A stretch of DNA of 52,121 nt. Source: a virus. This document shows, piece by piece, positions 6,496 to 6,869 of the stretch (its first letter is position 1; each line of letters starts with the position of its first letter). A program made the translations under genes and the position numbers. The notes below the pieces were generated by a model. The model had not been told where the DNA came from and searched no databases. It worked only from the letters and a program-made list of their open reading frames with translations. Where the stretch lies: the IMG/VR virus record IMGVR_UViG_3300045988_120717; one strand, 5' to 3'.

Positions 6496-6869
6496 AGTTA
6501 GACAATGTACGCAAATTAGCTCGTAAATACTTAGAAAAGCTTTATGAAGGAACCTGTACTATTACAGAATTTAGTAATGTCTATGATCCTGCTACGCATC
6601 GTACTAAACCTGTAAAAAATGTCATATGTGAGGGTGTCACGTGTCACCTGTCATATTCAACGTCACTGGCAGCGAAAAATACTGACACGGTAGCAGCTAT
6701 GGACCAGAATATAACGTTGTTTATATCTCCGAATATACTCGTTAAGCCTGGCAGCATAGTTGAAATAACACAGGCGGGACGAACTACAAAGTTTGAAGCA
6801 AGCGGAGCTCCCGTTGTATATCCCACTCACCAGGAGATAGGTTTAACTCTTACTGATAAAGAGGCTTAA
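6489..6869 (+). CDS. Head closure or head-tail adaptor protein.
   Basis: 126-aa ORF overlapping its neighbours in the head-tail joining module. It contains one copy of the 21-bp GTGTCAC repeat. Confidence 0.4.
   Translation: MVKLDNVRKLARKYLEKLYEGTCTITEFSNVYDPATHRTKPVKNVICEGVTCHLSYSTSLAAKNTDTVAAMDQNITLFISPNILVKPGSIVEITQAGRTTKFEASGAPVVYPTHQEIGLTLTDKEA

Follow-up and report, generated by a model that had tools for sequence, protein, structure and literature searches.

Short words that recur in a genome far above expectation are known from several systems. Chi, KOPS and DNA uptake sequences are properties of host chromosomes with a strong strand skew, and the metboxes of MetJ are short contiguous units that are weak singly and strong as arrays. 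Short dispersed words selected inside genes are rare; where they are understood (Chi, KOPS, uptake sequences and stoperators), they have revealed basic machinery. The stoperators of cluster A mycobacteriophages number more than 20 asymmetric sites whose orientation follows that of transcription, and their presumed target is the elongating RNA polymerase (PMC9283540). The omega protein of pSM19035 binds 7–10 contiguous WATCACW heptads with one dimer per heptad, and its affinity for a single heptad is low (PMC9499535). HIP1 (GCGATCGC) of cyanobacteria is a short hyper-abundant palindrome that is selected within coding sequence and whose function was long unknown (PMC5861425, PMC4390886). Here, we analysed the word GTGWCAC in a stretch of viral DNA of 52,121 nucleotides, IMG/VR record IMGVR_UViG_3300045988_120717, which is called the window below. 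The window is the complete circularly permuted genome of a temperate contractile-tailed phage (a myophage, judged from gene content), with a 119-bp exact overlap between 1–119 and 52003–52121 and a unique length of 52,002 bp. Our comparisons show that the word is maintained by selection at ~1.2 copies per kb across the late operon, regardless of frame. By analogy, it may be a variant of the known dispersed-site systems, of which stoperators and omega-type heptad arrays are the nearest.

GTGWCAC is present 35 times in the window (17 GTGTCAC and 18 GTGACAC; the hexamer count is 74), compared with 3.66 ± 2.0 in shuffled sequences (maximum 10), which is far above the k-mer background against which a preliminary description of this DNA had proposed to count it. 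When 7-mers are ranked with an order-3 Markov model, the two forms take the first two places. We also used a codon-aware null, in which synonymous codons are permuted within each gene so that proteins and codon usage are unchanged. Under this null, GTGTCAC is found 17 times in the late region where 1.63 copies are expected (z 13), an excess of ~10-fold, and ranks first among the 7-mers with at least eight late-region copies; GTGACAC is found 15 times where 6.6 are expected, an excess of 2.3-fold. The word is found in codon phases 0, 1 and 2, all of which are permitted. Enrichment in all usable frames beyond the codon-aware null therefore indicates a nucleic acid-level signal. This result, together with conservation at synonymous positions, agrees with the earlier proposal of a DNA-level signal and not protein homology. 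The late operon, which comprises the structural and lysis genes at 1–27 kb, holds 32 of the 35 copies, with a density of 1.19 per kb compared with 0.12 per kb elsewhere, and 29 of these 32 are intragenic. The 3.3 kb that follow terS are free of sites, and there is no GTGWCAC copy in the cI/cro intergenic region (33580–33848). The copies are also clustered, since neighbour gaps of at most 10 bases occur four times with 0.38 expected (P = 0.0006). Six arrays of two to four units lie inside genes at steps of 7–15 bp, all head-to-tail (7, 7/9, 9, 9, 14 and 15 bases) and five of the six in the sense orientation, and ~25 further units are isolated.

The two largest and densest arrays contain the exact 21-bp repeat GGTGTCACGTGTCACCTGTCA, at 6633–6653 and 18984–19004, both on the + strand. 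The preliminary description had reported this repeat in two unrelated genes read in different frames, and both the coordinates and the frames hold. In copy 1, it encodes GVTCHLS (codons 49–55 of open reading frame (ORF) 6489–6869), and in copy 2, with the frame offset by 2, (P)VSRVTCQ (codons 275–282 of ORF 18160–19203). No other dispersed repeat in the window is as long, once tandem and paralogue repeats are left aside. No third copy is found in the window at three or fewer mismatches, and none in 100 dinucleotide-preserving shuffles. For independent and identically distributed (i.i.d.) bases, 5.5e-4 direct repeats of at least 21 bases are expected in 52 kb, or 1.1e-3 when inverted repeats are included, close to the chance of roughly 1 in 1000 given earlier. 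The i.i.d. figure overstates the surprise, because GTGTCAC itself is ~10-fold enriched in this genome; given that arrays exist, the chance that spacing and spacer bases match in two copies is of the order of a few per cent, as estimated by hand. The tandem arrangement of TGTCAC at 7–9-bp spacing was likewise described correctly: the arrays are built of the hexamer TGTCAC (GTGTCAC as a heptamer), the steps are 7 and 8 bases in both 21-mers, and a fourth unit lies 9 bases upstream of copy 2, at 18977. Sequence identity between the two copies ends exactly at the array edge. Thus, the repeat stood as first described, and the wider pattern of six arrays and 35 heptamer copies had been missed.

To compare the sites among relatives (designated by L numbers), we scored losses at motif positions and at control positions matched for codon phase and relative coverage. 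Across five relatives that are 4–13% diverged, GTGTCAC is lost in 3 of 56 site-by-genome comparisons with 21.2 expected (P < 1/3000), and GTGACAC in 7 of 45 with 17.0 expected (P = 0.01); in L110, none of 11 GTGACAC sites is lost. A second set of eight genomes covering the head region shows 14 losses in 99 comparisons with 32.1 expected (P = 0.02). The control palindrome ATCCGGAT (596, 4367, 7606, 16093, 20845, 42464 and 46551; seven copies with 0.45 expected) is enriched, yet shows no conservation in relatives, and its enrichment is probably an effect of Pro-Asp (CCG GAT) codons. Regarding the 21-mers, both loci keep the array core in every close homologue, as a check proposed in the preliminary description had asked. 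The core TGTCAC-G-TGTCAC-C-TGTC is invariant in the variants of both loci and the flanking synonymous positions vary. None of the 16 or more relatives departs from the TGTCAC units of copy 1, and among ten further relatives a single one alters the array core, at the G spacer base only. At copy 2, the first unit is a full GTGTCAC in L100 and L110 and the last unit is a full TGTCAC in L100, where all four units are complete and three are full heptamers. The late regions of close relatives carry 1.1–1.5 sites per kb (average 1.3), compared with an average of 0.17 per kb in 77 distant homologous head modules, and the relative L341 has 22 sites with 1.6 expected. Related genomes are numerous, since the 115-residue protein of 4738–5085 is indexed in 397 blocks. 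The host is a Selenomonadales metagenome-assembled genome (CAAGHH01) from the human gut, identified from L090, where the phage is integrated, and L099, where attB is empty. Its chromosome, sampled as 21 kb around the empty attB, has no sites, where ~0.9 would be expected by chance and ~25 at the density of the phage late region.

The genes that carry the 21-mers differ in how the array relates to the protein. ORF 6489–6869 also has a weak match to 'head closure Hc1', and its product is colinear with 77 distant homologues (39–46% identity) without gaps at the copy 1 site. Here, GVTCHLS of the window aligns to DEPCRLS, which is conserved in the head-closure family, and the 3′ half of the 21-mer, TGY-CRC-CTG-TCA, encodes the conserved C-[RKH]-L-S motif of the family. 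The lineage changes DEP to GVT and R to H create two GTGTCAC units. EGVTCHLSY is kept in all homologues that are at least 89% identical, and a 48% identical homologue has EMPCRVS. Copy 2 is located in the C-terminal extension of ORF 18160–19203, which has no Pfam match; the remainder is assigned as XkdU-like on the assumption that PF10076 is the former DUF2313. The linker at copy 2 is variable: SPVSRVTC is kept in 93 and 80% identical relatives and different at 59%, and the linker is deleted in two more distant homologues and translated in the relatives that keep it. On these alignments, the word is kept in places at the cost of the encoded protein, with the array overwriting the conserved DEPCR as GVTCH. 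In summary, this uncultivated gut Negativicutes phage provides a clean case of such a word. The word is in 10-fold excess when the proteins are kept fixed, it is conserved where changes would be synonymous, a conserved protein motif visibly pays for it, and in natural variants the constraint is apparently relaxed; therefore, the reader and the purpose of the word are directly testable. Phage structural genes can carry a second, DNA-level information layer, which is relevant to codon recoding and synthetic phage design.

We tentatively lean towards the reading in which the copies are putative dispersed, oriented binding sites for a sequence-specific factor on the late operon, with the arrays as cooperative sites. 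The preliminary description had likewise suggested a protein-binding array. The word would be a cis-acting recognition site, and its reader would bind nucleic acid in a sequence-specific and orientation-sensitive manner and act on the DNA of the late region. Binding would be weak at single sites, and contiguous arrays with 7–9-base steps would be cooperative, high-affinity sites like the omega heptad arrays. Most likely, the word would control transcription along the 25-kb late operon by acting as a roadblock, a silencer or a processivity signal. Enrichment and conservation are both stronger on the sense strand, and the arrays are head-to-tail, which argues for an orientation-sensitive reader.

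Stoperators (20–30 oriented sites; L5 gp71 repressor) resemble the word in that tens of copies of a short asymmetric word are present in a temperate phage, with lineage specificity and an orientation bias. More than 20 copies are also found here, as 35 GTGWCAC, 74 hexamers and 32 heptamers in 27 kb. Regarding orientation, the sense form is 10-fold enriched and better conserved, and the antisense form is 2.3-fold enriched and also conserved. However, stoperators are 13 bp long, are found on both arms, lie mostly in short intergenic gaps and share their sequence with the early-promoter operator of the immunity repressor. The copies in the window are restricted to the late operon, and the relative L272, whose repressor is different, keeps its sites. 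The ribbon–helix–helix (RHH) systems, omega/ParB of pSM19035 and MetJ, share the 7-bp unit with TCAC and the contiguous head-to-tail or inverted units. The omega arrays have a strict 7-bp period with 7–10 units in promoter regions, whereas the arrays here have two to four units with 7–15-bp steps within genes and no fixed-distance promoter element within 40 bases; unlike in the RHH systems, the RHH-like protein of the window does not co-vary with the word. HIP1 is also a short palindromic word of about one copy per gene that is maintained inside coding sequence, but it extends over the whole host genome and is tied to cognate methyltransferases, whereas the present word is enriched in only half of the phage genome and not in the host (21-kb sample), its strands differ and the phage methylase is dispensable. 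Lastly, Chi, KOPS and uptake sequences are likewise short, far above expectation, DNA-level and frame-independent, but the word has no copies in the 21 kb of host DNA.

Several points weigh against the binding-site reading. First, the core is only 6–7 bases, and, unlike stoperators, 29 of 32 late-region copies are intragenic and none is found at the cI/cro promoter region. Second, steps of 7–9 bases place the units on different helix faces, which suits RHH or single-strand binders and not most helix-turn-helix repressors. Third, both orientations are enriched and conserved, so that orientation dependence need not be strict. The relatives are also non-independent samples. Finally, several candidate readers in the phage fare poorly. 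The cI-like repressor is disfavoured, since L272 has a repressor that is only 29% identical and keeps the sites. The RHH-like protein (25478–25687) is disfavoured because homologues with 83–89% identity and the same predicted beta-strand are present in seven motif-poor phages (0.05–0.10 sites per kb); the protein has weak NikA-like and DUF6290 matches, and its AlphaFold single-sequence model is of low confidence (pLDDT, the predicted local distance difference test score, 62). YjcQ (3691–4002) and the sigma-like DUF722 protein are disfavoured because both are present in the lineage carrying an N6_Mtase gene, in which the sites decay. For the sigma-like protein, we compared close homologues, and in L103 it is encoded upstream of the inserted methylase; its presence (sigma-like/ArpU-type) in the decaying lineage therefore indicates that it is insufficient to maintain the sites.

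The reader may instead be a small late-module protein, the product of ORF 24781–25020 or of ORF 24356–24526, or a host factor. The former is a 79-residue sigma-region-4/Q-like protein and the latter a 56-residue zinc-ribbon protein; both ORFs adjoin the arrays at 24.4–24.7 kb and are found in every motif-rich relative covering the region. The 79-residue protein has a single distant homologue (41% identical), in a phage without enrichment, which says little either way. Two further explanations of the word were rejected. The C5 methyltransferase, as a reader or as a very-short-patch (VSP)-type drive, is missing in L114–L116, which keep the sites. A two-element promoter does not fit, since there is no partner element within 40 bases on either side and the distance to gene starts is inconsistent.

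Among the rival explanations, an RNA-level signal is one that we consider unlikely, though the sense-strand bias and the head-to-tail arrays keep it alive. The late polycistronic mRNA would carry GUGUCAC as its signal, read by an RNA-binding protein, a sequence-specific endoribonuclease (a DUF4258/MqsA-like pair is encoded in the prophage) or a small RNA through a 7-nt seed match, and the stability or translation of late messages would be tuned in this way. All late genes are on the + strand, where the sense form exceeds its complement in enrichment under the codon-aware null (10-fold versus 2.3-fold) and in conservation (3/56 versus 7/45 lost), five of the six arrays run in the sense direction, and the 7–9-nt steps suit single-strand binders. 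However, the reverse complement is itself enriched in coding sequence and conserved (P = 0.01; 0/11 lost in L110), and the array at 24440–24455 is antisense. The predicted RNA accessibility of the motif is the same as that of GC-matched controls, and the window has no Rfam match. A tRNA scan of the window also gave no match.

Two other rivals concern DNA modification. The cargo slot between the sigma-like gene and terS (equivalent to ~49924–50203 in the window) is hyper-variable among close relatives (L103, L111 and L331–L340). The slot is empty in window-type genomes and otherwise contains a 515-residue N6_Mtase, a ParB_N–N6/N4 methylase fusion, or ParB_N with a 7-deazaguanine cluster. The last variant has genes for PTPS, radical SAM and GTP cyclohydrolase I (with QueC in some) and a different terS, and these genes look like a 7-deazaguanine DNA-modification set. 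In the N6_Mtase lineage (L103/L104, L337 and L339), sites are lost at the neutral rate, 8 of 16 in one comparison and 10 of 25 (8.5 expected) in a second; 15 of 25 sites are kept, compared with 85 of 99 in the others (Fisher P = 0.008). Lineages with 7-deazaguanine genes or the ParB–methylase fusion keep the sites. The N6_Mtase contrast comes from effectively one lineage, with some variants being polymorphisms shared with others, and is a lead, not a result. It is speculative, and in our judgement improbable, that the word is a phage-lineage-specific 'late-operon word', that is, an oriented 6–7-bp motif selected into coding sequence at ~1 per kb over 25 kb, which overwrites a conserved structural motif, is read by a novel factor, became dispensable once the N6-adenine methyltransferase was acquired, and serves as a genome-marking or anti-defence signal and not as a classical operator.

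It is also quite unlikely that the word is a defence-related DNA mark or shield, dispensable once another DNA modification is acquired, either as a Chi-like exonuclease attenuator at permuted headful ends or as a bound or modified site that evades restriction. With its Terminase_3 large subunit, SPP1-type portal and MuF, the head module resembles that of SPP1, which we take to imply headful packaging from a pac site near terS, with DNA ends in the site-bearing region. Sites occur in both orientations, which the protection of two ends would require, and the modification slot beside terS, whose N6_Mtase variant marks the sole neutrally decaying lineage, is a link that keeps this defence-related explanation alive. 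Set against this, Chi is over-represented in host chromosomes and the sampled host DNA has no sites, the first 3.3 kb downstream of terS are also devoid of them, and the two other modification lineages keep theirs; the N6_Mtase contrast itself is subject to the reservation given above.

A mutation or repair bias is very improbable. In this explanation, modelled on HIP1 or very-short-patch repair, mismatch repair paired with a methyltransferase would drive a functionless palindrome to high frequency. GTGWCAC is indeed a 7-bp palindrome with a W centre, like restriction–modification sites, the phage encodes a C5 methyltransferase, and the variant sites differ mostly by transitions, several having two changes. 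However, such a bias is unlikely because neither the sampled 21 kb of host DNA nor the early half of the phage, where 25 kb hold 3 copies, is enriched. In addition, L114–L116 keep the sites without the C5 methyltransferase, and the enrichment of the sense and antisense forms is unequal, unlike a symmetric duplex process.

That the 21-mer is a small inserted mobile element, as the preliminary description had suggested, or a recombination or conversion patch copied between both genes is barely conceivable, although spacing and spacer bases are identical in both copies (the hand estimate above): copy 1 shows no insertion relative to the 77 distant homologues and copy 2 lies in a variable translated linker, there are neither target duplications nor terminal repeats, identity stops exactly at the array, the unit numbers differ (three versus four), and the 18-mer core sits in unrelated contexts elsewhere in metagenomes. 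A coding coincidence, in which the peptides of two genes happen to share codons, deserves next to no credence even though the 3′ 12 bases of copy 1 encode C-x-L-S and CTGTCA is common there in distant homologues; the shuffles and repeat expectation, the top rank of the word under the protein-preserving null, the differing reading frames and the invariance of both loci across relatives with varying flanks effectively refute it.

We also looked for the word outside this lineage. A literature search for GTGTCAC returned primers only, and no nucleotide relatives were found among INPHARED phages. Scans of IMG/VR and metagenomes with the array-core pattern gave one further relative (OJAM01000128.1); most of the other matches were heptad arrays of an unrelated, iteron-like or microsatellite-like kind. 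For example, L256/L250 from a peat metagenome carry strict 7-bp GTGTCAC/CGTCAC arrays in intergenic positions beside pilin-like genes, and the unrelated L120 (IMG/VR) has such an array at a CRESS-type Rep origin. Therefore, GTCAC heptad arrays recur in other systems. The sites and the two carrier genes of the window are listed in Table 1.

Table 1. Copies and arrays of the word in the window, with the genes carrying the 21-mer
Feature	Position	Strand	Remarks
Head-tail adaptor/head-closure gene	6489..6869	+	PHROG 615 'head-tail adaptor', E 3e-32; alignment to 80 homologues
XkdU-like (Mu Gp48) baseplate gene	18160..19203	+	Pfam Phage_Mu_Gp48 (PF10076), residues 12–149
Copy 1 of 21-mer	6633..6653	+	GG-TGTCAC-G-TGTCAC-C-TGTCA; units 6635, 6642, 6650; in head-tail adaptor/head-closure gene
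Copy 2 of 21-mer and fourth unit	18977..19004	+	TGTCAC-CGG-TGTCAC-G-TGTCAC-C-TGTCA; in XkdU-like gene
Two-unit head-to-tail array	17401..17420	+	TGTCAC, 14-base step; baseplate J gene; GTGTCAC at 17414 kept in all covering relatives
Inverted pair GTGTCAC-N21-GTGACAC	17414..17448	.	Both sites kept in five covering relatives
Two-unit head-to-tail array	17836..17856	+	15-base step; baseplate J gene; GTGTCAC at 17850 lost in L100 and L110
Two-unit array, GTGACAC x2	24440..24455	-	9-base step, antisense; small ORF 24356–24526; kept in L100 and L110
Array GTGTCAC-TT-GTGTCAC-T-TGTCA	24645..24668	+	9-base steps; membrane-protein ORF 24531–24788; encodes VSLVSLV; both units kept in L110, first unit GTGTCGC in L100
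Single GTGTCAC, portal gene	1294..1300	+	Kept in most relatives; GTATCGC in N6_Mtase lineage, GTGTCGC in L333
Single GTGTCAC, MuF-like gene	1751..1757	+	
Single GTGACAC, scaffold gene	4278..4284	-	Kept in 10/10 relatives compared
Single GTGACAC, major capsid gene	5182..5188	-	
Single GTGTCAC, major capsid gene	5806..5812	+	
Single GTGACAC, gp6-like connector gene	6386..6392	-	
Single GTGACAC, sheath gene	8637..8643	-	Polymorphic in relatives: GTGACGC, GCGACGC or GTGACCC
Single GTGTCAC, sheath gene	9036..9042	+	
Single GTGTCAC, tube gene	9664..9670	+	Polymorphic: GCGTCAC in 4/10 relatives
Single GTGTCAC, tape measure gene	10664..10670	+	Polymorphic: GTATCAC in 5/10, GTTTCAC in 1/10
Single GTGTCAC, tape measure gene	11291..11297	+	
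Single GTGACAC, YqbQ-like gene	15949..15955	-	
Single GTGACAC, YqbQ-like gene	16039..16045	-	
Single GTGTCAC, sheath-initiator gene	16678..16684	+	
GTGACAC in ribosome-binding region of baseplate J gene (start 17075)	17061..17067	-	
Single GTGACAC, XkdU-like gene	18815..18821	-	
GTGACAC in ribosome-binding region of fibre gene 20760 (GGAGGTGACAC)	20748..20754	-	
Single GTGACAC, ORF 21871–22356	22259..22265	-	
GTGACAC in ribosome-binding region of ORF 22499–22753	22491..22497	-	
GTGACAC in ribosome-binding region of ORF 24531–24788	24523..24529	-	
Last late-side GTGTCAC, ORF 26878–27306	26987..26993	+	Kept in L100 and L110
GTGACAC outside late region (one of three)	38467..38473	-	
GTGACAC ~0.6 kb upstream of sigma-like late regulator gene (49429–49923)	48829..48835	-	
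GTGACAC ~0.5 kb upstream of sigma-like late regulator gene (49429–49923)	48924..48930	-	

The head and tail genes of the phage encode terS, terL, an SPP1-type portal, MuF, scaffold, capsid, connector, head-closure/adaptor, sheath, tube, an XkdN-type chaperone and the tape measure, and the baseplate and lysis genes encode YqbQ, baseplate J, the XkdU-like protein, two fibres and a GH25 lysin. Further genes are those for an integrase, the cI-like repressor, many XRE regulators, YqaJ/RecT, RusA, the C5 methyltransferase and a pentapeptide-repeat protein. The gene for the sigma-region-4/DUF722 late regulator is directly upstream of terS. Downstream of it, the region 49925–50130 has three TGTCGTTTTTT repeats at 11-base phase, two TGGCAG, an extended -10 (TGaTATAAT) without a -35 and then a hairpin; it is likely the late promoter. 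A 16-mer of this region, TTTTTTTGTCGTTTTT, recurs at 26243–26258. GTGWCAC was rejected as a late-activator site, since the late promoter upstream of terS has TGTCG(T6) repeats at 11-base phase without the word.

The attP region (29375–29617 in the window) contains the core TAGTATATTATACGA, which is common to the empty attB beside a DHH-family gene of the host (L099:11262–11276; in the integrated copy, L090:6394–6411). Five TTGTCTAC repeats (29375, 29386, 29582, 29593 and 29610) flank the att core in the manner of integrase arm-type sites. A relation of the word to integration was rejected, because it bears no relation to the att core or the arm repeats. Beside the integrase, 31185–32582 on the - strand encodes a DUF4041 and T5orf172/GIY-YIG protein (PF13250 is labelled SNIPE in the Pfam list), which may be a prophage-borne defence nuclease. 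At 36309–36866, also on the - strand, a DUF4258 protein is paired with a zinc-ribbon ORF, and the pair looks like a toxin–antitoxin module; weak MqsA_antitoxin matches fall on the neighbouring helix-turn-helix ORFs.

The C5 cytosine DNA methyltransferase gene (44938–46377) has a long variable region and is absent from L114–L116. In L114 (723–2433) and also in L115 and L116, RecT is called as two pieces with a GIY-YIG ORF between them, which suggests a homing-endonuclease or intron-like insertion. Other repeats are also present in the window. The DnaD-like replication gene contains 15-bp tandem repeats (TAGGTAAGGTTAGGT) at 41255–41302 that encode GKVRL three times and may be origin iterons. The 18-mer GGAGGTGATACAGTGGCT at 10613–10630 spans the ribosome-binding site and the GTG start (10625) of the tape-measure gene, and it is found again at 14335–14352, just inside the gene 14311–15096, where 14347 would be an alternative GTG start. 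Lastly, the gene for the pentapeptide-repeat protein (47210–47830) contains near-perfect tandem DNA repeats at 47393–47560, and its length varies among relatives.

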